DNA from: Phyllobates terribilis
Taxonomy: Eukaryota
Direction: 5' to 3'
Length of the DNA stretch: 64,000 nt
Assembly: GCF_046119375.1 (NCBI RefSeq)
Contig: NW_027362762.1
Span: forward strand, 865,024,001-865,088,000
Shown: in pieces, positions 16,264 to 62,809 of the stretch
Layout: each line of letters opens with the position of its first letter
How positions within the stretch are numbered: the first letter of the stretch is position 1
Made by a program: the position numbers and the translations under genes
Notes under the pieces: model-generated
The model's database searches: none
Seen by the model: the letters and a program-made list of their open reading frames with translations, nothing else
What the model was told of the DNA's origin: nothing

Positions 16264-16467
16264 GGCCACGGCCCCACTATCGGTATTCGGTCAGTATTTT
16301 TTCTCAGGAGTGGGAGTCAAAACCAGGAGTGGGTGATAAATGTAGAATTGGTGACTTGTTTCTATTATACCTTTTCTGTGATTGTTCCTCACCTGGTTTT
16401 GGCTCCCACTCCTGAGGAAAAAATACTGACCGAATACTGACCAAATACTGATAGTGGGGCCGTGGCC
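16264..16467. mobile_element. PIF/Harbinger-like palindromic MITE
   Basis: TIR GGCCACGGCCCCACTATC; TAA on both sides; second copy at 51207-51408. Confidence 0.85.
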
Positions 16468-20595: not shown

Positions 20596-20946
20596 GTAAA
20601 AAAAAAAACTCGCCAAAAGCTTATCATGGGAACATAGCATAAAATATTCTCGTTCACAATAATCTTGCAGTGAATTTATAATAATTTTTCTGCCTTGCAC
20701 TCGTCACCAGGATCCCTCTGTCATTCCTCTCCTCCATATGAGATCATCCTTCTCACAATGCACAATACAGTCATTTAGCCAAAAGGCTTGGCCAGGTCCC
20801 GGTGTCCTGAGAACAGAACGGTACCAGCGCAGAGGTGCCAACACAGCAGTCTGCGCCATCCAGCTGTTTAATATATGCCGTATCCTGTACTCAGAGATGC
20901 TATCTACACTACTGAGCGCTGATTTTATTTTTCTCTTCTATTAAAG

Positions 20947-21066
20947 CAAAGAGTTGAAATCCACAAGCTGCGTCAGGGGGACAACCTGATCCTGGGGTTC
21001 AGTATCGGAGGAGGTATAGATCAAGACCCTAACCAGAACCCCTTTTCGGAGGACAAGACAGATAAG
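20947..21066 (+). CDS. TAX1BP3: TAX1BP3 coding exon 2: QRVEIHKLRQGDNLILGFSIGGGIDQDPNQNPFSEDKTDK
   Basis: AG/GT boundaries, 120 nt, phase 0; PDZ ILGF loop. Confidence 0.98.
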
Positions 21067-21295
21067 GTGAAGATCTGGTACCGATACCATGGCTGTTTAT
21101 TGTGTTTTAGTTGGTTGATTATTAAATTAATTAGCCCCTTTTTGAACATACCCGGGCCTGTTCTAAAGCCTTTCTCTTCATCGGTATGCCTCCATTTATT
21201 CACTGCCTGTAATTCACCACACATTGTACACAGATTATGTTTTGCATATCCATAAGTGTTTTACACAGCATAGGGGTGCTGCATGACACTAACAG

Positions 21296-21520
21296 TGGGG
21301 CCGACTGTTGCGCACGGAGGACTATGTGGGGCCGACTGTTGCGCACGGAGGGCTATGTGGGGCCGACTGTTGCGCACGGAGGGCTATGTGGGGCCGACTG
21401 TTGCGCACGGAGGGCTATGTGGGGCCCACTGTTGCGCACGGAGGGCTATGTGGGGCCCACTGTTGCGCACGGAGGGCTATGTGGGGCCCACTGTTGCGCA
21501 CGGAGGGCTATGTGGGGCCC
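21296..21520 (+). repeat. 31-bp minisatellite (about 7 copies) in TAX1BP3 intron 2
   Basis: GGGGCC(G/C)ACTGTTGCGCACGGAGGGCTATGT. Confidence 0.95.
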
Positions 21521-27466: not shown

Positions 27467-30400
27467 TTAAAGACAACCTGTAATCTTGTAAAAGTTTGCC
27501 AGCTTTTAAGCTTATTGTATTCCTGCTGCACCCTGAGTGTTTATAATATGCACATAATTTATTACATATATGGGCCTTTTTTGTGCTAATTGTTATGGTC
27601 TTTACCAAGGGTGTGATGCACATAAGGCAATAATATAATACACCCTCTTGTAAAGAATTAACCCTCAATAAAATTCTCAATATATCTGGAACCGCATGGC
27701 AGGTTTATTGAACAGGGAGGGGGAGAGAGGGAATACTCTGGCAAGCAGCGGGAATAAAACTTAGTGCAAAAACTGGCCACATTAATATACTCTTGACTTC
27801 TTTTTATTGATTATTTTTTATGGGGAAAATTCTGCTATTGATCAGTGTTTTTATTTTACTTTTTTCCCTTCAGCATGTTAATTTTTGAAGTCTTTCTGCC
27901 TCAAATTTGGCCACTAAATCAATCGGAGGAGAAAAAGATGACCCTTACCCGCCCAAAAATTTCAGGTTTCAGCTGCATTTTTTTTTTTTTTTTCTGCCAG
28001 AAAAATCCTTGTGAAAAAAACTGTGGATCTACTATAGAGGTGACCACAAGAGAGATAATTTGATTGGCTAAGCCAGGGCTTCTCAAACCTTTTCTACTGG
28101 GGACTTCCCAGACTGTCCAATTACATGACTGGTTCTATCCATAGGGCAGATCATTAATATGAGATTGGTGGTCTGGCACCCCCACTAATATCTGCTTCCG
28201 CAGCGGTAGAACACAGCAGGCCCCCAATCATTCTCCACTGTCGAAGCAGATAACAGCTGATCGGTGGGATGCTGGGTGTCAGGTCAATATGAGGTCGCTA
28301 TGGGCCAATCAGTCTTGGACCACCTGTTTAAACTAGAGACCACTTCCGCTGCCTCGGCTCAACCACTAGGGGGCACCTCACAGTCTGAGAAGCGCTGATG
28401 TATATGACTCCCGACAAGATGCTTCCGGGGGTATATACAGTTGAGTAGCTGAATAGCTTATCCTCTCCTGCTTTCATCTTTGGCAGGATTGTCACTGAAT
28501 TATGGAAGCCTAGCTTATGTATTGCCTTTTGATCTCCTTTTAGATGTTGGTGTACAACGTGGGTATACTTATTTCCTAATACCGTTCATTTAGGATTCTG
28601 GTATATGCATACAGCCAGGAATATGCTGCATGCTTCTATTGTACATTTGTGGCCTTAGATACTGTGCTGATATGTATGCCATGATATATACAGTATAGTG
28701 ATCAGGTTATGGGGGTAATAAAGCTATAATGTGTAATTCCCAGCCCCGCACTGTGTGACTGCACAATGGCTCCTTCCTACAATAAGTCCGGTTTCGTTCA
28801 GCTGATACAGTGACTTTTTCGCTTGTTGATGGGTTCTCCGTGTTGTGTTATATTTGTATAGTGTACAGATGAAACCACTTGTTCGTGAAGGGACACTGTA
28901 AATGATGAAACTTTTGAAATGCACTAATTTTGCACTCCTCATGGCTGACCAAACATGTGCCGGGCTCACAATGTCTTAGGCATAAATTAGTAGCTTTTAT
29001 ACTGTTTGTACACAATCGTCAAATAAAATAAAAACTGGATTTGATGTGTATTTGTTCTTTTTTCTAATGTTGGATTTTCTTTAAAACTAGCCTATGTGCA
29101 AAAAAAACTATAAAAAGCATAGTCTTATCACCCTCATAAATCAGTTTTTATTGTACGTACCAGCCTAATATATCCATGAATTGTCCTGATTATCATTTTC
29201 TGTAACTTAACATCCACTCTTTTTGATTGTTTCTAATTATCAGCAGTCTGCCAGCACTGTACGTGCTGGAACTTTCCTTCCCACCATGCATTGATTTGGC
29301 TATTGTCCAGTTCCTTGCTTAATCCGAACTTAAATGGGCTGATTCATAAAAGCTTTTGAGCCAGAAAACTGAATTAAAAACATTGAAAACATGCAACATT
29401 TTTGTTCAAGTAGGAGTTGTGCAAAAATTTAGCGATTTTAGCCAATTTTTTGCCAGTTGGGGGTGCAGTCACACCTGCCTGTCAAATTCATCCCTGACTA
29501 GAATAGCATTTCTGGCACAGCGCATGAAGGCGCACACCAGTTAATGAATTTGGTGCCATTTTAGCAATACTGGCGTAGCGTGATTGTGCACACCAGTCGT
29601 GATGAGGCTGGCACCATAGTGTTATTCAACGCAAGTGACTTTTTAGCTTTCACTGGTAGGTTACCAGCCACCTCTGCAGTCTGTCAGCAATGGCTGGCTC
29701 CTAAGGAGGTTCGTACTGGCACCGACTTCTTGTGTAAGTCCATTTTATGATAGAGATTGATTCCAGCTACAAAGTTCAGGTCCTGATTGATTTCTATGGG
29801 ATTCTGGTACCCCAACTAAAGTTTGAGGTTCGTACTGGGTCTTCCACGGGTCCTCTCATCCCTACTTACAGGCTTTTTACTACAAAGCTAGCTGCATAGC
29901 GAGCTCCTATGCAAAACGTCCTCTGCTTGCAATTTGAGAGAAGGGCACAGTTCAGATTCGTGCTGGAAACCTGAAACTGGTCTGAACTGAATCATCAGGA
30001 GCACAATGCTCCCCCAGCACGCAGGAAGTTGGGAGTCAGGGGAACAGTGCGCTCCTGAAGATATATGTTGAAAACAACCCTTTTTTAAGTCTGATTTTTT
30101 GCTAGGCAGTTTCACAGACTAGAGAGGAGGCTTCATATGGCGTGACACCGATTAAGAACTTCTACTTAGTATAGAACTGCTTGTAGACGTCTCGGTCCTC
30201 TGCAACAATTTGCAGTTCTAAAGAAGAATTGGAGGCAGAGCTCAACGGCTGCATGTAAGGCTAAAATCCCTCCTGACTTCACTCTAGGGCATGTAAAATA
30301 AAAATGCAGAATAGTCCAGCTTTAATGCGCCAAAACAGAGAAATACGATTTATATAACCAAATAAAGTTGACCACCAGGCACATATATGAATGTTAGAAT

Positions 30401-31874: not shown

Positions 31875-32008
31875 TCATTGAAGATTTTGATATCCGTGCG
31901 GTTTTCTATACAAGCAGTAGTGCTGAGTTATAAATACAATGTCAAAAATAATAGAGAACAGGCCCAAACCAAACTTTGTGGGGTCACCAAATATTAATTT
32001 CCATTCAT
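31875..32008 (-). CDS. CTNS: CTNS last coding exon: (D)[43 protein letters not shown]
   Basis: Matches cystinosin TM7 and C-terminal GYxxL motif; acceptor CAG; 134 nt. Confidence 0.97.
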
Positions 32009-32513
32009 CTGTTGAAAGAAAAGAGGAAAGAATTTTATTGTGATGCCATAGTGTGCTCATATATAAAGCGCTGTTCACATCCACGTCACAGGCTCCATCA
32101 CGTGACAGATATTGCAGAGCGTCGTACATTCGTGTATAAAGAGAAGTCACATTGGGGGTTAAATGGAGCCTATGCAACCATGCGCAGAGAGAGAAGAGAC
32201 AAATCCTTATATTATGTCGCATTGGTCAGCGGTAATGTGGGCTCTGTATTATTGCAGCTGTAATCAGAATGGAGCAAACGTTAGGGCCCCATACACATTA
32301 GAGAATATGCCGATAGTCTAATGTGTAGGGGAGGCCTCCAGACAACTGATTTAGAAGAGATACGGATCTGGCGTGTCCAATTTCGGACTGTCTCCTTTTG
32401 TTATCAGTAAGATAAGCCGCTAGGAGAATAGTTTGGCAAAAAGCACGAACGGTTCTGTATATGGGGGACTGAGGAGAACCATTGTTTGGCCGTCCGCTAT
32501 CTATTGTGTATGG

Positions 32514-32699
32514 CAGGGTTCCCCAACTCCAGTCCTCAAGGCCCACCAACAGGTCATGTTTTCAGGATTTCCTTAGTATTACACAGGTGATAATTGCATC
32601 ACCTGCACAGGCAATAATTCCATCACCTGTGCAATACTAAGGAAATCCTGAAAACATGACCTGTTGGTGGGCCTTGAGGACTGGAGTTGGGGAACCCTG
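32514..32699. mobile_element. Young, near-perfect palindromic hAT MITE nested in the right TIR of a Harbinger-like MITE (~32283-32715)
   Basis: CAGGGTTCCCCAAC / GTTGGGGAACCCTG; 8-bp TSD GTGTATGG (32506-32513, 32700-32707). Confidence 0.92.
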
Positions 32700-33404
32700 G
32701 TGTATGGGGTCCCTTAGATCATAATGTTATAAGGTGATCTCAATGCAATTCTGTAGGACTGCGACAGGTACAGGTAACGCAGGAGGAACACAAAGTATCT
32801 TGCAGGCACCATGTCTGGATCCTGGCACTTAATATTGATCATCTGATTGCACAATAAACTTCAGGTGATGGCTGAAGCTCTGACCTAATGCCCAAGTACG
32901 TAACTGATAATGGGGGCAAAAAAAATCTACTGCATATAGTTTCACTGGAATGTAAGATGGCCGTAGTATCAGCAGACCGTCACAGATAACCCTGTCCTTT
33001 GAAGGGCACCGCTCCCTACACCTCTTATCTGAGGCAGTACTGTACACCTCTCACTACATTTTTGAGGATCTGAAGCTGTCAAAACTCCTGCCCCCACCGC
33101 TGTTAGGGCTCGTTCACATGACTATACATTGGATGAGTGCAACCCAATAAAAAAAAGGGATCGTGCTCAGACCAATGTTATTCAATGAAGCAGTGTAGAT
33201 TTGCATGTTTTTTTCGGAGTCATTTTCGGCGTTAGTAAAAAAAATTACAGCACGCCACGATTTTACCCCGAAATCGGATGGATTCTAGAAAAAAAAAAAT
33301 GGAAGCCATACAGACCATCAGTATGGCGTGTGATTTTTACATATATATTGCAGCTCTGTAAGATGGGAAACTAAATGGTCCTGTAAGATTAATAGCTGCT
33401 GAGT

Positions 33405-33643
33405 AAAAAATAAATGTTTTTATTTATATAGCGCCAACATATTCTGCAGCGCTTTACAATTCAGACAATATCATCACTGTCCCATTGGGGCTCAGAATCT
33501 ACATTCCCAATCATTATGTCTTTGGAGTATGAGCGGAACCTGGAGAAAACCCACACGCACACGGGGAGAACATACAAACTCCTTGCAGATGTTGTCCAGG
33601 ACCCCAGCGCTGCCGTGCTAACCACTGAGCCACTGTGCTGCCC
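33405..33643 (-). mobile_element. tRNA-derived SINE with LINE-like tail
   Basis: Minus strand GGGCAGCACAGTGGCTCAGTGGTTAGCAC (A-box TGGCTCAGTGG); 3' tail AAAGCGCTGCAGAATATGTTGGCGCTATATAAATAAA. Confidence 0.75.
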
Positions 33644-33862
33644 GTAAAAAATGGATTGTATACGGATGACCAGTGAGAAAAAAGGTGTCCAGTGCCCCTG
33701 GTTGAGAATGGGACTGATATTTGTATACACTCGTGTGACCCCCGGCCTTAAAGTTGTTTTTCTTTTCAGCATTCTGCAGGTCTGTGTTAGAGACAGCCGG
33801 TATTCACCCTCCCCGTATCCAGTGATACGTTCTGCTGGCTGCAGCAGTGATGTCACGTCTAG

Positions 33863-34135
33863 CTATATACAGCACGAGCCCCCACACAGCCCCCTATATA
33901 CAGCACGAGCCCCCCACCCAGCCTCCTATATACAGCACGAGCCCCCCACCCAGCCTCCTATATACAGCACGAGCCCCCCACCCAGCCTCCTATATACAGC
34001 ACGAGCCCCCCACCCAGCTCCCTCTATACAGCACGAGCCCCCACCCAGCTCCCTCTATACAGCACGAGCCCCCACACATGCCCCTATATACAGCATGAGC
34101 CCCCACACATGCCCCTATATACAGCATGAGCCCAG
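33863..34135 (+). repeat. 31-32 bp minisatellite (about 8 copies) in CTNS last intron
   Basis: CTATATACAGCACGAGCCCCCCACCCAGCCTC. Confidence 0.93.
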
Positions 34136-34370
34136 GCAGTGGAGCATGTGGTTGGAGAGAAAATACGCTATGCATTGTAGAATATGTAGTTCTAGAAAAT
34201 AAGGTGACCGGCAGCGGCGCACATGGTGGTGGTCACCCGAAGAGTGACAAGAATCCGTGAAGCAATGGGGAAAGCTAAAAAAGATACCGATGAGAGCACA
34301 TTGGGGTGCGTTCTGCCTAATGATAGTATGATTTCTGAAAGACGCCATTTGGCATCGGACATCTCCTTAA

Positions 34371-34985
34371 GGCTGTGTGCCCACGATGCGTTTTTTAAGC
34401 GTTTCCGCAGCGGCAATTCCGCTGCAGAAACGCTTAAAAAACGCTTGGTAGAAGGCCTGCCATGTTCCCCAATGATAATCCGCATGTGCTTTGCACATGC
34501 TGCGGAAATTTCCACTGCGGATTATTATTGCAGAAAAATCTGCAGCACTACCAATTATTTTGCGGAAGTGCTGTGTTTTCGCCGCCATTGACTTGCATTG
34601 GAACGCATGGATTACGCATCACTGCATCTGCACATGCGGTTCAATGTGCGGATGGTACCCGGGTTTGGAGAAGAGGAGAATGTCCTCCGGACCCGGGTAC
34701 CATAGTATCTGTAAAAAAAAGAATAAAATAAAAAAATATACATTATACTTACCTTCTGATGGCCCCCGGTGTCCTTATCCAATCCGTCCTGGCTTGCCAG
34801 CAGCTCGCGGTGGACGGACACCGGGGGCCATCAGAAGGTAAGTATAATATTTATTTTTTACCATTCTTTTACGGTCACACTATATAAATCCATGTCGGTT
34901 GCACGGATTTATATAGTGTGACCAAGTTGTCAAGCACTTTCCAAGTGATGCTAAAATCGCTTGGAAAGCGCTTGATAACCCGCAC
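34371..34985. mobile_element. Harbinger-like MITE of the 293-1137 family, right end truncated
   Basis: TAA|GGCTGTGTGCCCACGATG start; colinear with 293-990; ends about 25 nt from a CTNS donor. Confidence 0.75.
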
Positions 34986-35010
34986 GCACAATGATATTCT
35001 TCGTATTTAC

Positions 35011-35128
35011 CGTTATTATAGGATTGTAGAAACATCTGGATGATACTGAAGCTGCCGCCTGTAAAATCCAGCAGCACGTTTCCAATGCTCCATCCCTCTG
35101 TGCTTTTCCGGCGGAAATTCATGTAAGC
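35011..35128 (-). CDS. CTNS: CTNS coding exon 9 of 10: [39 protein letters not shown]
   Basis: CAG|GCT ... G|GTAAAT; 118 nt; second PQ-loop region. Confidence 0.97.
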
Positions 35129-35626
35129 CTGAGGAATAAAACATAAGGATTGGGTACTTAAATCAACATGCCCGATCCTTCTCTCCCGACAAGATCTGCC
35201 AGAGTCAGCTTCTCTAGGAGACCCATGACCATTAGATGATCAACCGGCTCCACCAAAATCAATGGGTTTAATCAACTTTAACCCAATGTTTTATGGTGGC
35301 CTTTTGACTGCTACTATCTCCAGAGATCCCTGGATTTCTGAATGTAAAATTTGCATTATAGTTCTTACAAAAAGATGGATGTAATTTTGAAATCACATCT
35401 TACCACTGATATATTTCCATAGTACATACTCAAATAAAAGTTTTAAGAACTTGACATTGTGGACAACGCCCGGCTATTTTGTGTTACTTGACATGAAATT
35501 CCCATCCCTTTGGGTAACCTCTCTCTATCTCTCCATATACCTTATTACTGGACTAGACCATTTGATCGGTAGTGAAGAAAGGAGGATATAATACGGTACA
35601 ACCATCCAGGTTGATCAGTAGGTTAC

Positions 35627-35797
35627 CTGTGGAAAGTATTTAATCAGTGTAATCGCCAGCTTTATATAGGAGAAGCAGAATAAGAACTGGAGCCAGCTCA
35701 CTTTTCCAGCCACGGCCACAAACAGCATGGAAAAGGCAAACAGCCAGGCAACGATCAAGAAGACAACCGCCACTTTAGAGACCTTCTGGGCGCCTCG
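35627..35797 (-). CDS. CTNS: CTNS coding exon 8 of 10: [57 protein letters not shown]
   Basis: 171 nt; YFPQ motif; AG/GT boundaries. Confidence 0.97.
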
Positions 35798-37485
35798 CTG
35801 CAAAGATCACAGAAGGCTGGAATAAGGACAACAGTTGTGCAGTACAATTTATTACATACGGGAAGGAGGATTATGCTTAGGAGCCATGGTTTAGTAGATA
35901 GAGCCTTCCTATACACTTGGGTGGTGTCTTGTACAGACCTTCTACAATGTAAGTCTATGGAGCATCAGAAGTAAGCTCCATAGACGCACATTGCAAAAGC
36001 GACCTCCGGTCCAGACAAAAACCCCTGTGTGATCTGACAAGTCCGAATTGCAGTCACACGAGTGGGAAGAGGATTGACGCATCGCTTGAAACCAGGGAAC
36101 ATGGCAATCGGTAAGTATTTAATTGCATTTACATTACATTGCATATACATTAAGACAAGTTTAGAGAAGATTATATTTCTTGTGAGTGCTTCTTTAATAA
36201 AAAAAATGAATGTATAAAAAAATAATTTCAGTCAACTACATTGCACCAAGCCGGATCTCCAGTTATTGTGGTGGTCTCACTGGGTCTTCTCCTATACAGC
36301 ACGGCTGATGGGATGCACTAAGTTGCCCACTAGCAATTCTTCCCCCACAATCCTTAGAAATTTATTTCATAGGAAATTAGAGTTGCATTTTGATAGAGGC
36401 ATAGACTAGAAGCTTACAAGTATTACAACCTGACATGGGCATTTATCAGGCAAATGTATGGACACTATAGGTGACGCAAGTATTTTTAGATTTATGGTAG
36501 AAATCTGGGAAAAAACACTTAAGGGGATTTTCTCTTTCAACAAACTGGACCCCAAATCCTTGCAGACATGTAAAATAGCAAAGCCAGATCGTACGTACCC
36601 TCCCCCGGTCCAGTCCTGCCACTGCTCCAGTCTCAGTGTTTTGGCAGCAACTAAGATATCACGTCAACACTGCAGCCAATCACTGAACTCAGCGGCTCTG
36701 CCAATGTAGATGGCACAGGCCGCTGAGCTCAGTGATTAGTTGCAGTAGTCACGGACAGCAGTCCTAATGGCACTGCTGCACCAATGTGAACAAAATCGCT
36801 GGTGGAGAGGCAATACCGGACTGGCAGGGAGGGAGTAATGCTGATTTTCTTTTTTTTTTTTTTTTTTACACACAGGATGCCTATACCATAAAAATGTAAA
36901 CCTGGACAACTCCTTTAAAAAGGAGCGTCACCTCTCCTGGCTGGTCTATCTGGAAAATACTTGCATTCGCCATGGAATAACAATTCTGGAGTATCGGTTC
37001 TTAGACTCCGCATTGTGCCATACCGCCTGCAAATGTATGAATAAATTAATGACAGGTACCAACCTCCCTGTCAATAGAGCATGTCTGCCAATGTCAGCGC
37101 TGACTCGGGGTGTAGGGACATGCTATCCTGGTGAACTGTATATTCGTTACACTTTTAGCTTGGCTGACGACTCTCCCCACCTGCTTTCCCTTGACTGGTG
37201 GTCTGAACATTGGAGCTGGAGCACGTTCTATTCCCATATAGTCATGCATGAAACATTTTTTTTCCTAATCCCAGTTACTCTCTAATCCCTTCGTTTGGTT
37301 ATATACTGTCATAATTAACCCATGTTAACTTATTTGCTTTTAGATAGAGTTAGGCTTTATATAAACACATATTTACGATGGTCAAGTGTCTCAGTAACAT
37401 TTACCTGGACACCTGAAGATCGGTAATAACCAGCTGACAAAGGAATTTCAAGGACGTCAGCTAAAAATAATCTCCTCCTACTTAC

Positions 37486-37605
37486 GTCATAAATACAGCA
37501 CTGAATGATTGTAACCAGTGTTAGGAGCACGGCGTGCAAGCTAAAAAATACGTCATTGGCATCCACCGGAATGACACCGTTGGGGTAGATCTGAAGAAAC
37601 TGCTC
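37486..37605 (-). CDS. CTNS: CTNS coding exon 7 of 10: [40 protein letters not shown]
   Basis: 120 nt; CAG|GAG ... GAC|GTAAGT. Confidence 0.97.
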
Positions 37606-37677
37606 CTGTAACAAATAATTGCACATCTAGTATTGTGGATGTACAGAAGCAATGAATGAACAGCACAGAACACGTAC

Positions 37678-37826: not shown

Positions 37827-39343
37827 CAGTGTGAGAGACAGTATCTTTAAAAAAATAAATAAATAAATAAATCAAGAAAATCACATTGTATGATTTGTAC
37901 ATAATTAATTAGCATTTTATTGCATGAAATAAGTATTTTGATACAATGGTAATAGATAAACAGAACTTAATATTTGGTACAGAAACCTTTGTTTGCAATT
38001 ACGGCGGTCAGACATTTCCTGTAGTTCTTGACCAAGTTTGCACACGCTGCAGCAGGGATTTTGGCCGCCTCCTCCATACAGATCTTCTCCAGATCTTTCA
38101 GGTTTCGGGGCTGTCGCTGTCCAACATTGAGCTTCAGCTCCCTCCAAAGATTTTCTATAGGGTTCAGGTCTGGAGACTGGCTCAGCCACTCCAGGACCTT
38201 GAAATGCTTCTTACGGAGCCACTCCTTAGGTGTCCTGGCTGTGTGTTTCGAGTCATTTTCATGCTGGAAGACCCAGCCACCACCCATCTTCAATGCCCTT
38301 ACTGAGGGAAGGAGGCTGTTTGCCAAAATCACGTGATACATGATCCCATCCATCCTCCCTTCAATATGGTGGAGTCGTCCTGTCCCCTTTTCAGATAAGC
38401 ACGCCCAAAATATGATGTTTCCCCCAGCATGCTTCACGGTTGGGACGGTGTTCTTGGGGTTGTACTCATCCTTCTTCCTCCAAACACGGCGAGTGGAGTT
38501 GATACCAAAACATTGTATTTTGGTCTCATCTGACCACATGACCTTCTCCCATGCTTCCTCTGGATCATCCAGATGGTCATTGGCAAACTTCAAACAGGCC
38601 TGGAAATGTGCTTGCATGAGCAGGGGGACCTTGCGTGCCCTGCAGGATTTTAATCCATGCCAGCGTAGCGTGTTTCTAATGGTAATGTCTGAGACACTGG
38701 GCCCAGCTCTCGGTAGGTCATTGACCAGGTCCTCCCATGTAGTTCTGGGCTGATTCATGACCTTTCTCAGAGTCATTCTTACCCCACGAGAGGAGATCTT
38801 GCCTGGAACCCCAGACCGAGGAAGATTGACAGTCATCTTGTGTTTCTTCCATTTTCTAATAATTGTGCCAACAGCTGTTGCCTTCTCACCAAGCCGCATG
38901 CCTAGTGTCCTGTAGCCTATCCCAGCCTTGTGCAGGTCTAGAATTTTGTCCCTGGTGTCCTTAGACAGCTCTTTGGTCTTGGCCACGGTGGAGAGGTTGG
39001 AGTGATTGATTTTGCACACAGGTGTCTTTTATACATATATTGAGTTCAAACAGGTGCAATTAATAAAGGTAATGAGTAGGAGGGCTTCTTAAAGAAAAAC
39101 TAACAGGTCTGTGAGAGACAGAATTCTTGCTGGTTGGTAGGTGACCAAATGCATTTTATTGCATGAAATAAGTAATTTAATTATTTTATTTGAATATCAT
39201 ACAATGTGATTTTCTGGTTGTTATTTTTAGATTATGTCTCTCACAGGTGAAGTGTACCTACAATAAACATTACAGACCTCCATTTTTGTAGGTGGGAAAA
39301 CTTGCAAAATTGGCAGTGTATCAAATACTTATTTTCCTCACTG
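37827..39343 (-). mobile_element. Tc1-family (DD34E, IR/DR-type) transposon, defective
   Basis: Stop-free transposase frame 37967-39019 but no ATG at the start (GTG); second catalytic D replaced by E (FQHENDSKH); right end ...CCTCACTG|TA; left TIR lacks its outer ~100 bp. Confidence 0.9.
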
Positions 39344-42324: not shown

Positions 42325-43920
<1,596 letters not shown>

Positions 43921-48540: not shown

Positions 48541-48702
48541 CTAATACTACAGATGGATCTCGGAAAGGACTGCTTGGTTCTGGGCATTGATGTGGGCACC
48601 AGTTCTGTGAAGGCCGTGTTAGTGGAGCCCGCATCCCGGGAGGTGCTGCATAGCCAGAGCCGGGACACAAGAGCCGGGCTGCAGAGCGAGTGTGGAGCCC
48701 AG
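48538..48702 (+). CDS. SHPK: SHPK coding exon 1 (start at ATG 48538 or 48553)
   Basis: LGIDVGTSSVKA FGGY-kinase phosphate motif; CAG|GTGAGG donor, phase 0. Confidence 0.92.
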
Positions 48703-49281
48703 GTGAGGCTGGAGGCTCCATGGCTTGCTGGGAATTGTAGTCCTTCAGATGCAGGAGAGTGACAGGTCTATGCAAACCTATATCAGGACATTGCTCCCTC
48801 TGTGACTTGTCCTTCATAGATACCCACCTTTTTTGCTCAGTGACATGGACATCAAACAATTGATATTTTTTATATATATATTTTATCTAAATTCATGTAT
48901 TTTGGGCTAAAGAACAGTTTTACAATTAGGATCGTTAAAAGTTTTGCACCATTTTGCCTTTACAAATTCTTTTTTTTCCAGCGCATTCAACTTTGATGTG
49001 GTCTGTGGTCATAAATCAGCTGAGAGGAGCGCAGAAAAAGAGGACACAAGAGTTACAGTCTCTCCTGTCAGAATGAGCTCACTGATGGATTTTCAGTTAA
49101 CTCATTCTGCAGCCTGCAATAGACAGCAGCTATAGAAGGCACATGGTGCAACATTTTTAATGAAACCCAAATACAAACATGAATTTTATCCAAGAATACC
49201 TACATTTAAAGTGTGACCGCTGTTTTAATTTTTGTTTCATAAATCAATAGTACACATGAAAATAAACAACTTTGTCATATA

Positions 49282-50908
49282 CAGCACAGACCAAAAGTTT
49301 GGACACACCTCATTTAAAGATTTTTCTGTATTTTCATGACTTTGAAAATTGTACATTCACACTGAAGGCATCAAAACTATGAATTAACACATGTGGAATT
49401 ATATACTTAACAAAAAAGTGTGAAACAACTGAAAATATGTCTTATATTCTAGGTTCTTCAAAGTAGCCACCTTTTGCTTTGATGACTGCTTTGCACACTC
49501 TTGGCATTCTCTTGATGAGCTTCAAGAGCTAGTCACCGGAAATGGTTTTCACTTCACAAGTGTGCCCTGTCAGGTTTAATAAGTGGGATTTCTTGCCTTA
49601 TAAATGGGGTTGGGACCATCAGTTGTGTTGTGCAGATGTCAGGTGGATACAATGCTGATAGTCCTACTGAATAGACTGTTAGAATTTGTATTATGGCAAG
49701 AAAAAAGCAGCTAAGTAAAGAAAAACGAGTGGCCATCATTACTTTAAGAAATGAAGGTCAGTCAGTTCGAAAAATTGGGAAAACTTTGAAAGTCTCCCCA
49801 AGTGCAGTTGCAAAAACCATCAAGTGCTACAAAGAAACTGGCTAACATGAGGACCGCCCCAGGAAAGGAAGACCAAGAGTCACCTCTGCTTCTGAGGATA
49901 AGTTTATCCGAGTCACCAGCCTCAGAAACCGCAGGTTAACAGCAGCTCAGATTAGAGACCAGGTCAATGCCACACAGAGTTCTAGCAGCAGACACATCTC
50001 TACAACAACAGTTAAGAGGAGACTTTGTGCAGCAGGCCTCCATGGTAAAATAGCAGCTAGGAAACCACTGCTAAGGACAGGCAACAAGCAGAAGAGACTT
50101 GTTTGGGCTAAAGAACACAAGGAATGGACATTAGACCAGTGGAAATCTGTGCTTTGGTGTCATGAGTCCAAATTTGAGATCTTTGGTTCCAACCACCGTG
50201 TCTTTTTGCGACGCAGAAAAGGTGAACGGATGGACTCTTCATGCCTGGTTCCCACCGTGAAGCATGGAGGAGGAGGTGTGATGGTGTGGGGGTGCTTTGC
50301 TGGTGACACTGTTGGGGATTTATTCAAAATTGAAGGCATACTGAACCAGCATGGCTACCACAGCATCTTGCAGCGGCATGCTATTCCATCCGGTTTGCGT
50401 TTAGTTGGACCATCATTTATTTTTCAACAGGACAATGACCCCAAACTCACCTCCAGGCTGTGTAAGGGCTATTTGACCAAGAGGGGGAGTGATGGGGTGC
50501 TACTCCAAATGACCTGGCCTCCACAGTTACCAGACCTGAACCCATTCGAGATGGTTTGGGGTGAGCTGGACCGCAGAGTGAAGGCAAAAGGGCCAACAAG
50601 TGCTAAGCATCTCTGGGAACTCCTTCAAGATTGTTGGAAGACCATTTCCGGTGACTACCTCTTGAAGCTCATCAAGAGAATGCCAAGAGTGTGCAAAGCA
50701 GTCATCAAAGCAAAAGGTGGCTACTTTGAAGAACCTAGAATATAAGACATATTTTTGGTTGTTTCACACTTTTTTGTTAAGTATATAATTCCACATGTGT
50801 TAATTCATAGTTTTGATGCCTTCAGTGTGAATGTACAATTTTCATAGTCATGAAAATACAGAAAAGTCTTTAAATGAGAAGGTGTGTCCAAACCTTTGGT
50901 CTGTACTG
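49282..50908 (+). mobile_element. Full-length but inactivated Tc1-like DD38E (Intruder-type) transposon
   Basis: TA TSDs; ~200-bp TIRs; frame 49693-50745 with a premature TAA at 49843; first D lost (WCHESK); 38 residues between QQD and E. Confidence 0.92.
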
Positions 50909-51206
50909 TATCTTATCAGAGAAATCTGCTTCTTTCTCCTCCTGGACTGATCATTTACTCTCTATTCATGGGTAATATCTGAATTCAACGAAGACAGAGT
51001 TTCCCATTACTGAGATAGAAGATGGCAGTTGGTGCTTTTGAAATTTTATGGAGAAGGAAGGAGTTGGAGGCAAACACAGACATTTTACTGCAAGCTGTCC
51101 TGAAGCTACAGTTACAGTTCTCCATAGAAGTTCATGAGCATCAACTGCCATATTTTATGTCAGTAATGGGAAAGTCTGTACTTGCTGAACACAGATTTTA
51201 CTCTTA

Positions 51207-51408
51207 GGCCTGGCCCCACTATCAGTATTTGGTCAGTATTCAGTCAGTATTTTTTCTCAGGAGTGGGAGCCAAAACCAGGTGAGGAACAATTTGAGAAAA
51301 GGTATAATAGAAACAAGTCACCAATTCTGCATTTATCACCCACTCTGGGTTTTATCTACCACTCCTGAGAAAAAATACTGACCAAATACTGATAGTGGGG
51401 CCGTGGCC
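51207..51408. mobile_element. Harbinger-like MITE (same family as 16264-16467)
   Basis: TTA on both sides; TIR GGCC(T/AC)GGCCCCACTATCAGTATT. Confidence 0.85.
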
Positions 51409-51427
51409 TTAAATTGAGAATTAAGGG

Positions 51428-51930
51428 TAAAAGCCAAACCAGAATCTCAGTTTGCAGACACAGTATTTTGGGGTATTGTCCTTGATCTGCAAATTATGAT
51501 TCTGGTTTGGCTTTTATCCTAAGTCATGTGATAAGGCTCGTTAATGTGCCAATATTGACTTTTAGGATTGCTACTACCAATAGGTGGCACTGGAGTTCTA
51601 GTTCTCTTCCTCTCTGAAGAGACAATTTACATATTTAATTTCCCAAAGCAGCATGCATGGCATATGAGTCTCCTCACATTGACATGCCAAGCTTGTCACT
51701 CTCCACAAGCAGAAAACTTTACCCCTTAGATGCCAGTCTTAAGTCTGTCATACAGCCAAATCAGATCTCATGATTTGCACTGATGAGGTACTACACCCCG
51801 AAACACCGTGTCTGCAAGTTAAGAGTCATATTGAAAGGCTCATTAAAGGGTCGATAATGACTTTTAGTATTGCTTCTTCCAATAGGTGGCACTAGAGTTC
51901 TAGTCCTCTTCCTCTCTGAAGAGGTGATTT
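51428..51930 (+). mobile_element. Non-coding retrozyme-like element: inverted 5' fragment, 325-nt monomer, partial direct repeat
   Basis: TC^TGCAA at 51487 and 51812; repeat of GACTTTTAG..TTGCT.CT.CCAATAGGTGGCACT.GAGTTCTAG.CTCTTCCTCTCTGAAGAG; 51428-51482 is the reverse complement of the ribozyme 3' region. Confidence 0.75.
51775..51817 (+). ncRNA. Minimal type-I hammerhead ribozyme
   Basis: TTGCA-CTGATGA-GG(TACTACACC)CC-GAAA-CA(CCG)TG-TC^TGCAA: intact core, GUC site, perfect stems I and III; stem II weakened. Confidence 0.85.
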
Positions 51931-53094
51931 GTATCCTTCAGCCACGGCCCCACTATCAGTATTCGGTCAGTATTTTTTCAGTTAGTGCTGGCGCCGTCCA
52001 TGATATTTGAATACTGCTCCCGACAAGCGCTAGGTTTGAGGGGCGCTGATAAGATATATTACAAAGTTTTTTTATTTTCACATCTATTAATGATTTACAA
52101 AAGTAAATTTAAAATGACTGATACTCTTTGGGAGCTTTTTTTTTTTAATTCCTTAAAGTTGGACAACCTCTTTAACATAAGTTGTGTGCGACTATAATTT
52201 GCTCGTGATACGTCTGCAGCTTGGTTTTGTTTTTTTACAGTAAAGTATCCTGTTTGTAATAGTCGCGGACAGCAGGCTGCAGAGTAATCGCACCCCTTTT
52301 TTGGTGATGTGATTTGTATGAGACGTAGAAGATAGAACACGGACACACATGGGGTTATTCCGTTTTCTTTTGCGGATCAGCAAAAAAATAAATGGAGACC
52401 CTTTTTTGATACTATTTACAGATCAAACTCACCCATTTAAATCAGTTAAAAAAGACTGGAAGGCACATGAAGCTGTTGAGTTCAGGTCAGAAGACCCAAG
52501 AACGATCTGATCATCGCAGTTTGTATTAGAACCGTGAATGTCGGCTGTGTGAAACCTGACTACGCGTCCATTCACACTACTGTAATCGCCCACCCTTGGC
52601 CGCAGGTCTCCGGTCCGGAACTAACAGCCTTGTATCTGCCTCTGAGAATGATACTTCAGGCTAGAAGACCCATAATGGGGCCAGGCATTGAAGCCCAAAA
52701 CACGGACGGTAAAATAGGGCACCCTTAGTGGCGGCTTCCAATGTCATCATGTAAACTAACTTCATCAGCATCTAGGATTCAATCTCAGAATTGTCTGCAG
52801 CAAATCATTCGTGTGAGAACATGTCCCTAGCAATGACCCGCAGCTCTCATTATATTATGGTACACCTCATCAGTATGCTAAAAACGGAAACAGTGGGATA
52901 ATGGCTTTAATTTTAATCAACGGTAGATACCTTGTCATTTGATTTGGGACTGCATACACATGACAAAGATGTTCTGCAGGAGCTGTGCTATGTGGCCTGA
53001 CCTTAGTCAAAAGCAAAATGATCATTAACAATACTTTATCTATGTGGAGCTGAGATCAGACCAACGTTACCTTTGTCCAGGATTAAATAATTAA

Positions 53095-53561: not shown

Positions 53562-54223
53562 TTAAAAATGATAATGATTAGTTGATCTGTCCTAAATTGG
53601 AAAGTTTTAGGGTTCCTTGCCAGCATAAAACATAACCTTAAGGATATGTGCACACGGGGAAAAATGGCATAATCTGCAGTGACAAAACCTACTGCATACT
53701 TCATTGAAAAATGCTGCCGTTTTAACCCTTTGCATTTTTTAAAAGGGAGAGAATTCCTGGGGAAATCTGCAGCACATATCGGCATGCTACAGATGTCAAA
53801 TTCACAGCGCCGCTCATTTTATACTGCAGATTTTCTCCTTTTTGTGTGATGGAGATTTCATAAAATGTGCTGTAAAATGTAGGAGATTTCAGTTTCACCC
53901 CCGTCTGTGTACACCCGAAGCATGTGAATGACTGATCATTAAAAAGTATTAAAATATAGGTAAGTATTATAGGTATAGTAAGAGTTAATAAGATACAAAA
54001 AAAATCAGTACTCATCTGTGCATATCCCTACCGTGATGGCGTGCTGTACACACGTTACCGCTGCAGCTAATCTCTAGGAATAGTGTTCATGTGCCATACA
54101 TGCTAGCTAAGCAGAGTGACTGGCTGCAGTGGTTACATGTAGACGGGTACTGAACCATTTTTTTTAGATTCTGCACAACCCCTCATAAATTGAGATCTCA
54201 CTGTTGTACATTGTTGTCTTCAG

Positions 54224-54365
54224 GGAAAAGAACAAGATGTCTGTCGGATAATCCAGGCTCTAAATGATTGCTTGACGGCTGTACCCAGAGAAAGGCTTCG
54301 TAAAGTCTCACGAATCGGGGTGTCTGGACAAATGCACGGAGTCTTATTTTGGAGAAGCGGCCAAG
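54224..54365 (+). CDS. SHPK: SHPK coding exon 2: GKEQDVCRIIQALNDCLTAVPRERLRKVSRIGVSGQMHGVLFWRSGQ
   Basis: CAG|GGA; IGVSGQMHG FGGY motif; 142 nt; donor G|GTGTAA. Confidence 0.96.
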
Positions 54366-54709
54366 GTGTAATATCTGGGTGATATTGATATGTATTTTCC
54401 CTTTTTTTCCGCTTTTATCATAATGAAGTTGATTGGAAAAAGGCTTTCCGGCATGTAAAACCCATTTTCTAATATCCTATAAGGTAATTCCGGAAGATAA
54501 AGGGGTTTCCCACTGCGGTACAACTTATTAATGAGCCCAGGGATGTGAAAAAGAAATATTTTTTAGCCTTTTTTGTGCTTTTAGATCCTAGTAAGGGTAA
54601 GTGCTCACAACTTATTTTTCGGGCAGGTCCACTCCAAAACCAACCAGAAAAGGCACCCAGAAAATGCTGAAAGGAATTAACATGTGATTGTCTATGTAAA
54701 ATCACTTAA

Positions 54710-57213: not shown

Positions 57214-58358
57214 TTAATGAATCCCTCCCAGAAAGTTCCCAAGACTGGGCATGACCATCAAATATGTGTCTTTGTCCCCTTATTCCCCCCCCCCATTTAT
57301 GTAAGACAGTGGGAACTCAATACTACATTGAAAACATTTTAGAACTTGTTTCTTGTGCTTTAGTTGCGATTATAGATTCATGGGATAGGTGACAACATCT
57401 AGCCCACTGCCCCTCTGTAAGTTTTTGTTGTAATTCGGTCTCCCAAGCCTTACAATAGGGAGGGAAATATTCTAAGCCTGGAGATGGCGTGCGAGGGGCC
57501 AGTGGGGTCAACACACAGCCTTTCAAAAGGGGACAAAATGTCTTCTTTTTGAAAAACTGTGCAATCATCCCTGCCTGAAAAAGCCGTCATGTGCACATAA
57601 CTTTTTTATAGCTTTGGCTAACAAATACATTGAAGGGGTTGTCCATGACTTAAAGGGTTATTTTACAGGTTTAAAGATAAATTTACTGAGCTGAGTAGCT
57701 GGACCACCAATGATCCCGAGAACAGGGCTCTGGAACCCAGGAATTAGGCTCTGCAGACCCCCATCTCGAGTGAAAAGAAGGTGCTTATTCTCCAGCTTCG
57801 CTCCATTCACTATCATTGGGGCTGGTGGATAAACCCGAGTACGACGCTTCAGCCGTCCCATAGACAATGAATGAAGAGGAGGTCGAACTTGTGCTCCTCC
57901 ATTCTCAATGGGGCTCTGGTTTCTCGGTTATACGGGATTGCTTGAGCTGTTTTATTGGGGATTATTTCTGATTTTGGGAGTAATCCTCTAAAAGGAACCT
58001 GTTAGGCAATTCATGCTACCCAAACCGCAGGCAGCATGAATCTCTACTGATAGTTCAAGTCTGCAAGGAAAAAATAAGCAGCATGTGCATGAGATATTTT
58101 GCTGGTGCTGTAAAACTCTGGGTTTTCTTACCCTTGAATCTTGCTGGTACTTTAATATGCAGAACTTTTTACCCTTTAAAAAAAAAGAAAAAAAGCTCGT
58201 CAGGCAAACACGTTTTTTTTTTTTTAACCCTTGAAAAACACACGGTAAAAAACGCAACATATAAACAAGCCCCCAATGTTAGTGGATGTGTTAATTTGTG
58301 AAGCTCTGGCGCTCCTCTGCAATCAGGACGGGATCTATATATCTTTCTATTTTGTTAG

Positions 58359-58542
58359 GATGTCATTGGATTAATAGCGAAAATCTCAGGGTCTTTGAGC
58401 CAAACGAAGTCAGCCGACTAGTGACCTGGGAAGATGGACGATGCACTACAGATTTCTTATCCTCCTTACCGCAGCCGCAGTCCCATCTGAACGTGGCATC
58501 AGGGTTCGGCTGCACTACTATATTCTGGTATTTAAAGAACAG
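58359..58542 (+). CDS. SHPK: SHPK coding exon 3: (G)CHWINSENLRVFEPNEVSRLVTWEDGRCTTDFLSSLPQPQSHLNVASGFGCTTIFWYLKN(R)
   Basis: TAG|GA ... AG|GTAAAA; 184 nt. Confidence 0.97.
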
Positions 58543-59449
58543 GTAAAATATACAGTTATAGCAGAAAAGATGCTAAATTGAAAAATGTGTCAAAAAGCAA
58601 AAATTCTAAGAATGTGAATTGGTACCATAGTTGTTGCAGCTGGCAAATGTTTGACTATAGGGATATAAAGATGTTTTTCGAGTGCAGTAAAGTAACCTTT
58701 TTTCTGGATTACTGGTGACTGGTTATAGTTAAATCCTACCTGCCCTTACAGAAAACCTGTAGAAAAGCTTGGTCCTGCTGACCTCATCGTTTTCATCCAG
58801 TTAAAACTGCTTTTTTAAAAATCGAATTCTCATACACTATAATTCGCCGTCCACTCGTTTTGAAATGCTGTTCCTTCTAATCAGCATGCTGCCAGCACTC
58901 TAGGTTTAGGAACTTCCTTTCCCACCACTTGCAAGTATGAATTCCTCCTGCTGGACATAATAGCAGAAGCAGAGAGATAAAGACCAGCCTACGTCCTTTA
59001 ATCAGTCTCTGTCTCTGCTGCTAGGGACTGATTACACCTGACAACAGGCAGGGGAAAGCGCCTTAGACAGAAGGGAGACACCTAGTGGTCAGTACTTTTG
59101 GATTGATTTTTTTTTTTAGCGGTAAGACAACATAACTTGTAAGTAAAGTGATTTGCAGACTGTCTACTTATAACATCATATGAGATTAAGTTGTCTGAAT
59201 GTGCAGAGACGATTTAAGGTTTTAGCTAATAGTGTTCCTTCCAATATTTCCAAGTCTTAGGACTCTCATTGAAGATGATTTAGGCCCTGTTTACATTACG
59301 TTTCTAGCCTATATTGGAGGTATATGTCAGGAGGGTGTCCACTGATAGACTGTCATTTTAAAAATGCCGTATCGTGCTTTTGTATGCTTTCTAGTCCTAG
59401 GGATACATTTGGCATTTATGTTGAGCACTTGATGTGAAGAGGGCCTTAA

Positions 59450-59869: not shown

Positions 59870-61265
59870 TTAAAGGAAAACACCATTTTTGAACAATGTA
59901 CAAAACTGCATTGTACATAAAATGCTGGTTTATTTTCCTTATGGAAGTAATATGATTTTATTACTGTATCTGTTGTAGGAAGATGTATAAACAGTAGAAA
60001 GACTATCATGGGGGGGGGCATCAGTGTAATGGCCATAACAGTGTGATCTCACCACGATATAAGACGGCCGGGTCACATGAAACTCCCTTTGTGTCCTAAA
60101 GGCAAATGCCAGGAATCCGCAGGACTGCGGCTGTGTCACATGCTTTTTACAGTCCGGGATTTATACCGTTCCTGGGATATCAGATTATCAAAATCTTCAA
60201 ACAAAAAATCTGAAATTATTTGTGAGAGTCCTTTTTATTGTCTTAAAGGGTTTTTTTGGGAATACATTTTTCTTTATCCTCATCGGTTTACACTAGGTTA
60301 TCATAAACTCAGGTATTACGCACGCCCTGCTGGTCCAACGCTGCCTCTCTGCTGCTGCTCCGGACATGGTGAATCAGTATCTAATGCCTTCCTGGAACTT
60401 GTTGTACTTGTAAGTTATGAGTATGCCCCAAATATCTTGACTTGCACATGTTACAATAAAGACAAGTTGTAACGTGCAGAATTTGGATCTGGTCCCTTGG
60501 AATCCTTTTGGGAACCTGCTTTTCTGCTGCAGTCAATCACTGGGCTCAGCAGCTCGTGCTGTCTACATCTGAGTCACATATGAGCTCAGTGATTGGCTGC
60601 AGCGTTCATATTCACTGTCACAGCTGCAGCCTGTCTACAAAGAAAGGAGCTGCAGCAGAGAGGCAGCACTGGACCTGGAGGAATGAATAACATCTGCGTT
60701 TATTATTTTAGGATGGGAATGTAATATTTATTACCGAAAAAAACACTTTTAAGATTTTCTTATGCATTAGATTATTGTAATCCGAACCCGAAAATTGACT
60801 AATGTGTATGGGAGTCTCCTGACTCTCAGGTGACCGGTAATGTCCGGGGAGGTGAAGCATGTTGGATAACTCCCAGTACTTTTCTTCCTACAGGAGATGA
60901 TGGGCCTCATTGTCTTGTTGCTTATTGCTCTACTTTTGCCATTGACAGCACATGCACGCTCGTCCAGATATGAGAGTGCAGGTGTATGGAGGTCAGGAGA
61001 CATAGCTTCCAGCCCAGCAAAACTTTAGGTTTATGGGAACCTTTCCTGGAAGTTATTCCTTGGTCAATAGAATATATTATAAAATGGCGATTGATGCTAT
61101 TTGGCTACCGGGATCCTCACCAATCCCAAGAACATATGTTTGGTCACTCTCCGGACACTGCGAACAGAGAACCTGCTCTCCCCTGGAAATCGACGGCAAA
61201 GCCGTGGATTGCTGTTGTCCTAAGGTTGGTTCATATCCTAACCGGTCCCTTTATGTATTGTACAG

Positions 61266-61418
61266 GCCTGACTTCCTTCAGCAATATGACTCTGCTGGTA
61301 CAATCCAGGACTACGTTGTCTCCATGCTGTGCGGCCTCCAGAAACCAGTGATGTCTGTGCAGAATGCTGCTAGCTGGGGCTATTTTAATACCAGGACCAA
61401 AACCTGGAACACAGATAT
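61266..61418 (+). CDS. SHPK: SHPK coding exon 4: PDFLQQYDSAGTIQDYVVSMLCGLQKPVMSVQNAASWGYFNTRTKTWNTD(I)
   Basis: CAG|G ... AT|GTAAGT; 153 nt; QNAASWGYF motif. Confidence 0.97.
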
Positions 61419-61499
61419 GTAAGTACAGTAGTGTCTCTTATCTCGTAAGCTTTCATCTGATCGGTTCCTTGGTTTGTAGACTTCCACTTTCAACACAGC

Positions 61500-61900: not shown

Positions 61901-62223
61901 AATATGCAAATTGTCTCTTCAGAGAGGAAGAGGACTGGATCTCTATCGCCTCCTATTGGAAGTAGCAATCCTAAAAGTCTATATCTACCCTTTAATGAGC
62001 CTTCCCAAATGACTTAGGATAAAAGCAAAATGTTTCGGGGTGTTCCCTCTCGCCAGAGGAGCACTGTGTAGCTTATAAGCCTCCTTACACTGGCATGCCA
62101 GTGTAAAAGCCAAACCAGAATCTCAATTTGCTGACGTGTTTCAGGGTGTTGCCCCTCCTCAGTGCTAAGCATGAGATCAGATTTGGCTGCATGAGAGGCC
62201 TCTGACTGGGGCTTAAGGGGTAA
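61901..62223 (-). mobile_element. Rearranged second copy of the retrozyme-like element, with a degenerate hammerhead at 62127-62168 (-)
   Basis: Minus strand TTAGCA-CTGAGGA-GGGG(CAACA)CCCT-GAAAC-AC-GTC^AGCAAA; minus pieces 61901-62051 and 62104-62223 flank a plus piece 62053-62102, all homologous to the 51488-51812 monomer. Confidence 0.75.
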
Positions 62224-62569
62224 GAACCCCTTGGTAAAGACCATAAAATGATCATTAAATAAAAAGGCTCATATCTCTGGAACAGTATGGCGGATTTAAA
62301 AAAAACTTAGTAATCAGCAGAGCAGTAGGAATAAAATAACAAAAACAGGTCATTTTTGACCCGGTGACGAGTCTTCTTTAAAGTTAAAGTTTGCTACACC
62401 TGTAAGTCTAGATAAACTTGAGGCATCTTTCTAGAAGTAATAATGGCATCCATGTTTGTTTTTTTCTGCCACTTCCAGAGGCTTCTTGCAATGTATTGTG
62501 GTGTTTTATTTGTTAGTGTTTTTTTATGATTATTTTTTTTCTGATGTCATCACTGTTTTTCTTTATTAG

Positions 62570-62745
62570 ATTGGAAGCGTACGGTTTTCCTTTATGTCTC
62601 CTCCCGACTGTGGTGGATGCGGGGTGTATGGCAGGGAAGACCTCCTATGAATGGTGCGGGATCCCTCAGGGGACAGAAGTTGGCATCGCTTTGGGAGATT
62701 TTCAGTGTTCAGTTTATAGTTCTCTAAACGAAAGCACGGATGCAG
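62570..62745 (+). CDS. SHPK: SHPK coding exon 5: LEAYGFPLCLLPTVVDAGCMAGKTSYEWCGIPQGTEVGIALGDFQCSVYSSLNESTDA; later exons lie beyond the window
   Basis: TAG|A ... G|GTACGG; 176 nt; ALGDFQCS FGGY motif. Confidence 0.96.
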
Positions 62746-62809
62746 GTACGGGTATACAGCAATCCACCTACTCCACCGGCATAAATCTGCATTTATGCAC
62801 CATATATGA

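Follow-up and report, generated by a model that had tools for sequence, protein, structure and literature searches.

A probable non-LTR retrozyme copy with a type I hammerhead in an intron of the frog Phyllobates terribilis

The DNA analysed here (hereafter the window) is a stretch of 64,000 nucleotides from Phyllobates terribilis (contig NW_027362762.1, positions 865,024,001 to 865,088,000 of the forward strand), and all positions are counted from its first letter. The window carries a sedoheptulokinase gene (SHPK). A 59-codon exon (58364-58540) matched 36 proteins among 42 candidates, the named full-length ones being frog sedoheptulokinases, with identities of 95% to Ranitomeya imitator (the top match), 90-93% to other hyloids, and 78-80% to Xenopus. 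A tblastn search of the window with the R. imitator SHPK protein placed five exons (252/289 identical residues; Table 1). A preliminary description had put a hammerhead-bearing element on the sense strand of SHPK intron 1, and the first two exons in Table 1, which flank the element, bear this out. A second copy of the repeat lies antisense in SHPK intron 4, about 10 kb from the first (the 51k copy) and in the opposite orientation, so that the retrozyme-like repeat occupies two dispersed loci within the 64-kb window. Neighbouring genes at 20923-21070 and 31878-37626 include a PQ-loop (cystinosin-like) gene on the minus strand, and one exon among these neighbours, without a Pfam match, resembles TAX1BP3.

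Several other repeats surround the two copies. The 51k copy is bordered on both sides by a MITE of about 205 nt, which we take to be T2/Kolobok-like and whose two full copies are 93% alike. Directly upstream of this MITE lies a palindromic interspersed repeat (50913-51201) with 84-nt arms that are 81% complementary, itself 76% identical to a copy at 17354-17721. Three Tc1/mariner transposase frames were also found (37970-39028, 42651-43712, and 49675-50742), two of them open for 353-354 codons, and the third (49675-50742) has a pair of inverted terminal repeats (49279-49487 and 50700-50911) that are 96% alike. TRF detected minisatellites at 18671-20410, 3768-5260, 21295-21519, 33863-34133, and 6609-7134, with periods of 41, 29, 31, 32, and 200 nt, respectively, and our type I hammerhead descriptor had no match in any of these five arrays. 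The 62k copy adjoins a different interspersed repeat (62214-62360, also at 14116-14250 and 27568-27611), which begins after TTAA at about 14100 and whose right half was not found beyond the insertion.

Table 1. Positions of the features discussed in the text (numbers with a plus sign count from the first nucleotide after the cut)
Feature	Position	Strand	Remarks
SHPK exons	48553-48702, 54212-54367, 58358-58543, 61252-61419, 62571-62777		placed by tblastn
MITE, about 205 nt	51206-51410 and 16261-16472; fragment 51941-51982		long imperfect terminal inverted repeats, TTA(A) flanks
Inverted fragment	51424..51487	-	ribozyme core without the first CU, GAAA mutated, through to about +33
Putative monomer (unit 1)	51488..51812	+	+1 to +325; non-coding, 41.5% GC, rod-like fold
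3' arm of stem I, start of unit 1	51488..51512	+	positions 13-25 identical to two other 3'-arm copies
5' arm of long stem I	51754..51779	+	pairs 12+12 bp with 51488-51512, mean pair probability 0.97-0.99
Type I hammerhead core	51780..51812	+	CUGAUGA, stem II, GAAA, stem III, GUC; cut after 51812
Partial second unit (unit 2)	51813..51934	+	+1 to about +146/+151; 23-nt deletion in 3' arm; end abuts MITE fragment
Hairpin at +116-135	51603-51622, 51905-51923, 61914-61933		nearly invariant in three copies
Octamer-like motif at +138	51625..51632 (+), 51927-51934, 61911-61904		7/8, 7/8, and exact, respectively ATTTGCAT
Second locus, piece A	62100..62223	-	5'-truncated, whole hammerhead, long stem I, to about +33; 84/106 identity to 51719-51827
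Second locus, inverted body piece	62053..62100	+	matches 51643-51689, 36/47 identity, nhmmer E 0.021
Second locus, palindrome	62085-62106		22 bp, at the inverted-piece junction
Second locus, piece B	61901..62056	-	degenerate core, 22-nt deletion over cut site, body to +148; 110/130 identity to 51506-51635

The ribozyme core of the 51k copy lies where it had been placed, with CUGAUGA at 51780-51786, GAAA at 51800-51803, and GUC at 51810-51812, in agreement with the general form CUGANGA/GAAA/NUH, and it is framed by three helices of which helix I is open (9 pairs in stem I, 2 in stem II, and 2 in stem III). The bare core pattern was not significantly enriched in the window (7 matches versus 4.87 expected), and its two best matches both fall inside the same repeat. 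When the stems were included, the type I descriptor matched only at 51780 on both strands of the 64 kb, and just one of 300 dinucleotide-shuffled windows gave any match with a stem I of at least 5 bp (loosening this to at least 2 bp let 9% of the shuffles match). With the stems required, this frequency indicates a hammerhead beyond chance. A MITE or palindrome-derived repeat carrying a chance look-alike, as the MITEs on the flanks and a 97-nt hairpin with TIR-like ends at the left border might suggest, is for this reason highly improbable, all the more because the two best core matches share one repeat. Rfam returned no match at the gathering threshold anywhere in the window; its best hammerhead match, RAGATH-1 at the 51k copy, was sub-threshold (19.1 bits versus 56.3, E 0.31), and the E-value scan gave no hammerhead match for the 62k copy and otherwise only hairpin and miRNA look-alikes.

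The stems were partly other than first described. Stem I had been given as a perfect 5-bp helix (TTGCA/TGCAA), which proved too short: it has 9 pairs in place, two of them G.U, and 12+12 bp once the monomer's own 5' end pairs with 51754-51779, while the downstream 3' arm in unit 2 has lost 23 nt. Stem III is short, as had been noted, with 2 pairs and a 3-nt loop, and its near-palindromic sequence can self-dimerise (8/9 pairs, -7.4 kcal/mol). For stem II, the two clean pairs of the 51k copy stood, but the other copy reads GGGG/CCCT rather than the reported GGGG/CCCC; since piece A of the 62k copy combines this stem II with an A.A mismatch at the base of stem I, it also fails the type I descriptor. 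Four ribozyme remnants are present in the window (51780 on the plus strand, the inverted piece, and two at 62k), and stem II, which has a 5-nt loop, is broken at different pairs in each of them, with G-C as the commonest standard pair at all four positions (3/4, 3/4, 3/4, and 2/4, counting G.U). The majority of the four gives an inner stem I of 6 bp, a stem II of 4 bp, and a stem III of 2 bp, that is, a canonical layout, and these comparisons of decayed copies point to a canonical hammerhead with a 4-bp stem II as their common ancestor. Two-sided changes were seen at 0 of 30 pairs, a count made on four decayed rows of which one is non-homologous outside the core and one has a 5' arm that is not independent.

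Folding the 51k copy as a hammerhead costs 8.4 kcal/mol, compared with 2.7-4.0 kcal/mol when the majority stem II is substituted (in a calculation without tertiary contacts), and when no constraint is set the ribozyme core is trapped in the fold. The three body copies of the repeat differ at 17-20 of 111 sites (15-18%). These figures bear on whether the ribozyme has been retained to cut SHPK pre-mRNA in cis, a role that its sense orientation in intron 1, its intact core nucleotides, and its nine-pair stem I might suggest. We consider this very unlikely, given that half of stem II is broken, that an arm of the long stem I has been deleted, that the core is trapped in the preferred fold, and that the repeat arms diverge at neutral-looking levels.

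The partial direct repeat downstream of the ribozyme was recovered as 107 ungapped nt at 83% identity, or as 51488-51628 against 51813-51930 with 100 of 120 positions identical and one 23-nt gap. The missing 23 nt are present both in the inverted piece and at 62k; the gap is therefore a deletion in unit 2, and the period (302-nt offset plus 23-nt gap) is 325 nt, as had been proposed. The unit is non-coding, in line with the earlier statement that it holds no ORF (the longest stop-free frame has 56 codons), and in length and GC content it falls within the limits given for non-LTR retrozymes, 150-450 bp and below 50%. Its MFE is -94.9 kcal/mol (z -4.81), with none of 100 shuffles as good, and the interior without the terminal stem still gave z -2.6 (2 of 150 shuffles as good). 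The monomer is thus predicted to be stably self-paired, with 59% of its bases paired, which is below the 70% quoted for retrozymes. Because its first 25 nt form 12+12 bp with 51754-51779, a circle would rebuild the long stem I. We infer that 325 nt is a natural unit and not the product of two joined ends of a Penelope-like element (PLE). Within the unit, a hairpin (+116-122 with +129-135, pair probability 0.97) sits just upstream of the octamer-like motif and of the shared 3' end, and is a candidate RT-binding or initiation signal.

The 51k locus itself shows no tandem array by TRF. It comprises 1.4 units with one sense-strand ribozyme, compared with the at least two complete ribozymes of an active element, and is thus unable to release a 325-nt monomer or circle by double cleavage. 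Neither locus showed a TSD of more than 6 nt in its flanks, which are disturbed by MITEs, and an exact 22-nt conserved word had no match in GTDB genomes, as expected. The suspicion that this copy is a weakened relic agrees with the 15-18% divergence among copies, the two-pair stem II, and the single sense ribozyme, and judged from its sequence the 51k copy is most likely inert.

At its 5' end, the 51k copy carries the inverted fragment that had been noticed (Table 1), which on the minus strand runs from the core GA to about +33. Together with 51488-51520 it forms a near-perfect 97-nt hairpin (51424-51520, -54.1 kcal/mol, z -11). We rejected this hairpin as a MITE, since its right arm continues into the body at the second locus and is thus not a terminal repeat. 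Rfam scores the hairpin as miRNA-like, though far under its thresholds, and in SHPK pre-mRNA it might serve as a dsRNA substrate. The TC^TGCAA at 51487 had been taken as an equivalent cleavage junction, a view we abandon: no plus-strand ribozyme lies upstream, and the site is an inversion junction where TC is ambiguous, being equally the complement of GA in the inverted core. The first 12 nt of unit 1 (51488-51499, +1 to +12) differ at 1 of 12 positions from the reverse-complemented 5' arm and at 2-3 of 12 from the copies of the 3' arm; from +13 to +25, by contrast, the sequence is identical to the 3' arm. The inverted piece and unit 1 are therefore joined at the cut position, within -2 to +12 of it; a join at +1 needs no extra indel and one at +12 a 2-nt loss. 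This pattern suggests a ribozyme-cut 5' end at the join. The same junction argues against a 325-nt circular RNA coming from the 51k locus itself. Although joined ends would rebuild a full ribozyme, there is one sense ribozyme, and the upstream border is the inversion junction, whose hairpin (-54 kcal/mol) sequesters +1 to +33, so that we regard this source of circles as extremely unlikely.

The two inversion junctions share a geometry. For either join position at 51k, stem I places +1 opposite +292. At 62k, the complement of +202 follows directly on the end of piece A at +29 to +33, with a 22-bp palindrome at the join, and as the predicted fold pairs +36-39 with +193-196, these junction positions also face each other. 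Both of the two junctions thus connect positions opposed across predicted RNA helices, a regularity noticed post hoc and in two cases. PLE insertions are stated to carry inverted 5' pieces (PMC8557442), and the Penelope-type reading of the inversion given earlier fits our results. On the predicted fold, the inversions may have arisen by fold-back priming or template switching across the helices of the RNA itself.

The body copies also contain promoter-like motifs. Mismatches in the octamer-like motif differ between copies, so that the majority of the three copies is exact; exact octamers are not enriched in the window (4 versus 5.4 expected). What we take to be a PSE-like motif, scored against a 15-position consensus (11/15 strictly, 12/15 with a relaxation made after seeing the sequence), lies at 51700..51718 (+), 113 nt before the cut and 75 nt from the octamer, and occurs in the 51k copy only. 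An octamer of at least 7/8 combined with a PSE appeared in 1.7% (strict) or 0.6% (relaxed) of 4000 random 325-nt stretches, a weak result, and the combination occurs 12 (strict) or 3 (relaxed) times in the window, the 51k one included. Transcripts of newt satellite 2 in the ovary start 46-47 nt before the cut. PSEs sit at -67 to -46 (PMC2235858), which predicts a transcription start about 46-49 nt before the cut in the 51k copy; the octamer-to-PSE gap of 75 nt compares with about 155 nt in 7SK (PMC2235858). Given a PSE in a single copy and this short gap, the promoter stays a lead. An SPH-like motif after the octamer (13/18, background 4.4e-3 per position) was rejected as not significant, and another PSE candidate, at 51719, was set aside since it did not rank with the top scores. 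In addition, what is presumably a CTCF-like motif is found in all three body copies, at 51577..51590 (+) with 13/14, 51879-51892 with 13/14, and 61959-61946 with 11/14. It lies inside their best-conserved block (background 3.9e-5 per position at 13), and if it is real, the family would spread CTCF sites.

A search for RT and GIY-YIG domains found none in 102 stop-free frames (18 + 84), mostly from the neighbourhoods of both loci, the matches in these frames being Tc1 transposases, SHPK, the PQ-loop protein, and three weak sub-cutoff domains, and a motif scan of the whole window found no clustered PLE words. Nothing in these frames corresponds to the RT plus GIY-YIG ORF between pLTRs of an autonomous PLE. 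The repeat does combine a partial tandem, an inverted 5' piece, and a fixed 3' end, as PLEs do: the end is at +148 in piece B (62k) and between +146 and +151 in unit 2 (51k), the latter confounded because the MITE fragment starts where unit 1 has a matching TTAA. For an anole PLE, RT is reported to start internally, 111-118 nt into the ORF with the cut site at 26 (PMC11167929), that is, by subtraction about 85-92 nt past the cut; that study found that insertion did not need cleavage, and that none of the reads ended at the cut site. The pLTRs of EN+ PLEs (Poseidon/Neptune; anole PAc) have a type I hammerhead, partial tandems, an inverted piece at the 5' end, and a 3' end at a fixed point downstream of the cut. 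Unlike them, the 51k element has no RT-EN ORF, a canonical rather than a minimal hammerhead, and only 177 nt from +148 to the next cut.

Since the copies at both loci end near +148, two truncated pieces could have been brought together by a jump at the +148/+149 joint. There would then be no 325-nt unit at all, but a partial tandem of two 5'-truncated pLTR ends of a long coding PLE plus an inverted piece, with the spacing set by the truncation point of the second piece. PLE insertions are indeed 5'-truncated partial tandems with an inverted 5' copy (PMC8557442), the shared end near +148 is accounted for, the stretch 51690-51714 (most of the PSE-like motif) is present in one copy only, and 24 of 57 Xenopus retrozyme families match Repbase elements, nearly all of them PLE termini (bioRxiv 10.64898/2026.07.22.740005). 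However, metazoan PLEs are reported to carry minimal hammerheads without helix III while retrozymes carry canonical ones (PMC4209133, PMC7761336), and the hammerhead here is canonical. The 325-nt spacing also lies within the amphibian retrozyme range, no ORF start is conserved in +1 to +148, where the longest frame with an ATG has 41 codons, and the octamer and PSE-like module spans the joint, as rarely expected by chance, though this is weak, as stated above. A cross-joint duplex test gave one significant pairing of six, that of 62k left and 62k middle (z -3.5), with z +1.1 for unit 1 against itself, and is unable to separate this account from a retrozyme. Taken together, we find joined PLE ends unlikely, though less so than any of the alternatives above.

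Non-LTR retrozymes have been found in all seven amphibians sampled, with 57 families in Xenopus, a REP4 dimer that cleaves, and an amphibian mean of 316 bp (bioRxiv 10.64898/2026.07.22.740005). The preliminary description could not tell whether such a family had been described before; novelty is not supported, since this preprint already describes anuran retrozymes. The Xenopus families, REP4_XT included, resemble the present repeat in their anuran host, similar size, common dispersed intronic monomers (44% intronic), and relation to PLEs; by contrast, our host is a hyloid, and the preprint's main text has neither inversions nor promoters, a comparison made by description. Stem III in X. tropicalis (PMC3088659 Fig. 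S8) is apparently of a 1-bp type versus 2 bp in the 51k copy, and short words of the 51k ribozyme had no match in the supplement text of PMC3088659. Retrozymes of the axolotl, Rtz_331 and Rtz_353 (330 and 350 nt), form circles and cleave better as dimers (PMC7229834). By description, they share with our repeat a canonical type I hammerhead, a weak helix III, a non-coding unit (325 versus 330/350 nt), GC below 50%, and self-pairing, and the 2-bp stem III of the 51k copy resembles HHR_Amex2; they differ in that loop 3 has 4 nt (3 nt in the 51k copy), and the 51k copy has no tandem array or TSD and carries an inverted piece. Newt satellite 2, with a 330-bp unit, strand-specific monomer and multimer transcripts, and an snRNA-type Pol II promoter (cited in PMC2220036), is similar in unit size and in the internally looped extension of helix I, and its promoter is resembled by our octamer and PSE-like motifs. 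It differs in a helix III of 1 bp (PMC7229834) and in its abundant arrays, and the only sign of a promoter in the 51k copy is a match to motifs. According to a 2020 review (PMC7761336), promoters seem to be missing from metazoan retrozymes, and the evidence on the retrozyme life cycle is described as limited (bioRxiv 10.64898/2026.07.22.740005). Searches of a largely open-access literature showed nothing on a hyloid family, inverted retrozyme insertions, or a frog retrozyme promoter, though the supplements of the preprint and of PMC7229834 may contain the family.

Overall, the 51k element is probably an old copy of a frog non-LTR retrozyme, namely a non-coding, non-autonomous Penelope-type retroelement with a unit of about 325 nt and one canonical type I hammerhead per unit. 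The canonical layout, the dispersed loci, a unit near the amphibian mean and the 330-350 bp of axolotl and newt, and the lack of RT and endonuclease argue for a retrozyme, and the inverted 5' piece, the two ends near +146 to +151, and the internal RT start of the anole PLE argue that it was moved by PLEs. The retrozyme assignment first proposed also agrees with published non-LTR retrozymes in helix sizes, size of the non-coding unit, 41.5% GC, and self-paired fold. Points against it are the absence of an array, of compensatory changes, of a TSD longer than 6 nt, and of an Rfam match at threshold. In addition, of nine Xenopus retrozyme dimers predicted to be active, eight failed to cleave in vitro (bioRxiv 10.64898/2026.07.22.740005), and insertion of the anole PLE does not require cleavage. 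Such elements are already known as a class, and the 51k copy is probably dead.

By analogy with published retrozymes, intact tandem copies of the family would be transcribed, their hammerheads would cleave, probably after dimerising by way of the self-complementary stem III, and the monomers would be ligated into circles in which the long stem I is rebuilt. A PLE RT/GIY-YIG protein would then copy the RNA into new sites, from about 150 nt past the cut and over more than one unit. The 51k copy may have come from a cDNA that began at about +148 and extended backwards across an uncut ribozyme and a whole unit, and whose 3' end may have folded onto the other stem I arm and recopied the core, leaving the inverted piece.

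We also entertain, as a doubtful but possible extension, that the family is a hyloid satellite-2-like retrozyme with its own Pol II snRNA-type promoter, starting about 46-49 nt before the cut, whose copies record PLE-type mobilisation through internal RT initiation near +148 and fold-back inversions. If true, self-promoting ribozyme retroelements would span salamanders and frogs, and conservation of the octamer and the PSE among frogs would demonstrate self-driven transcription outside salamanders. The mobilisation of retrozymes by PLEs has so far rested on co-occurrence and pLTR similarity, and the inversion points and 3' ends of this family bear directly on the mechanism; if the extended reading is true, they would provide insertion-level evidence that PLE machinery moves retrozymes.
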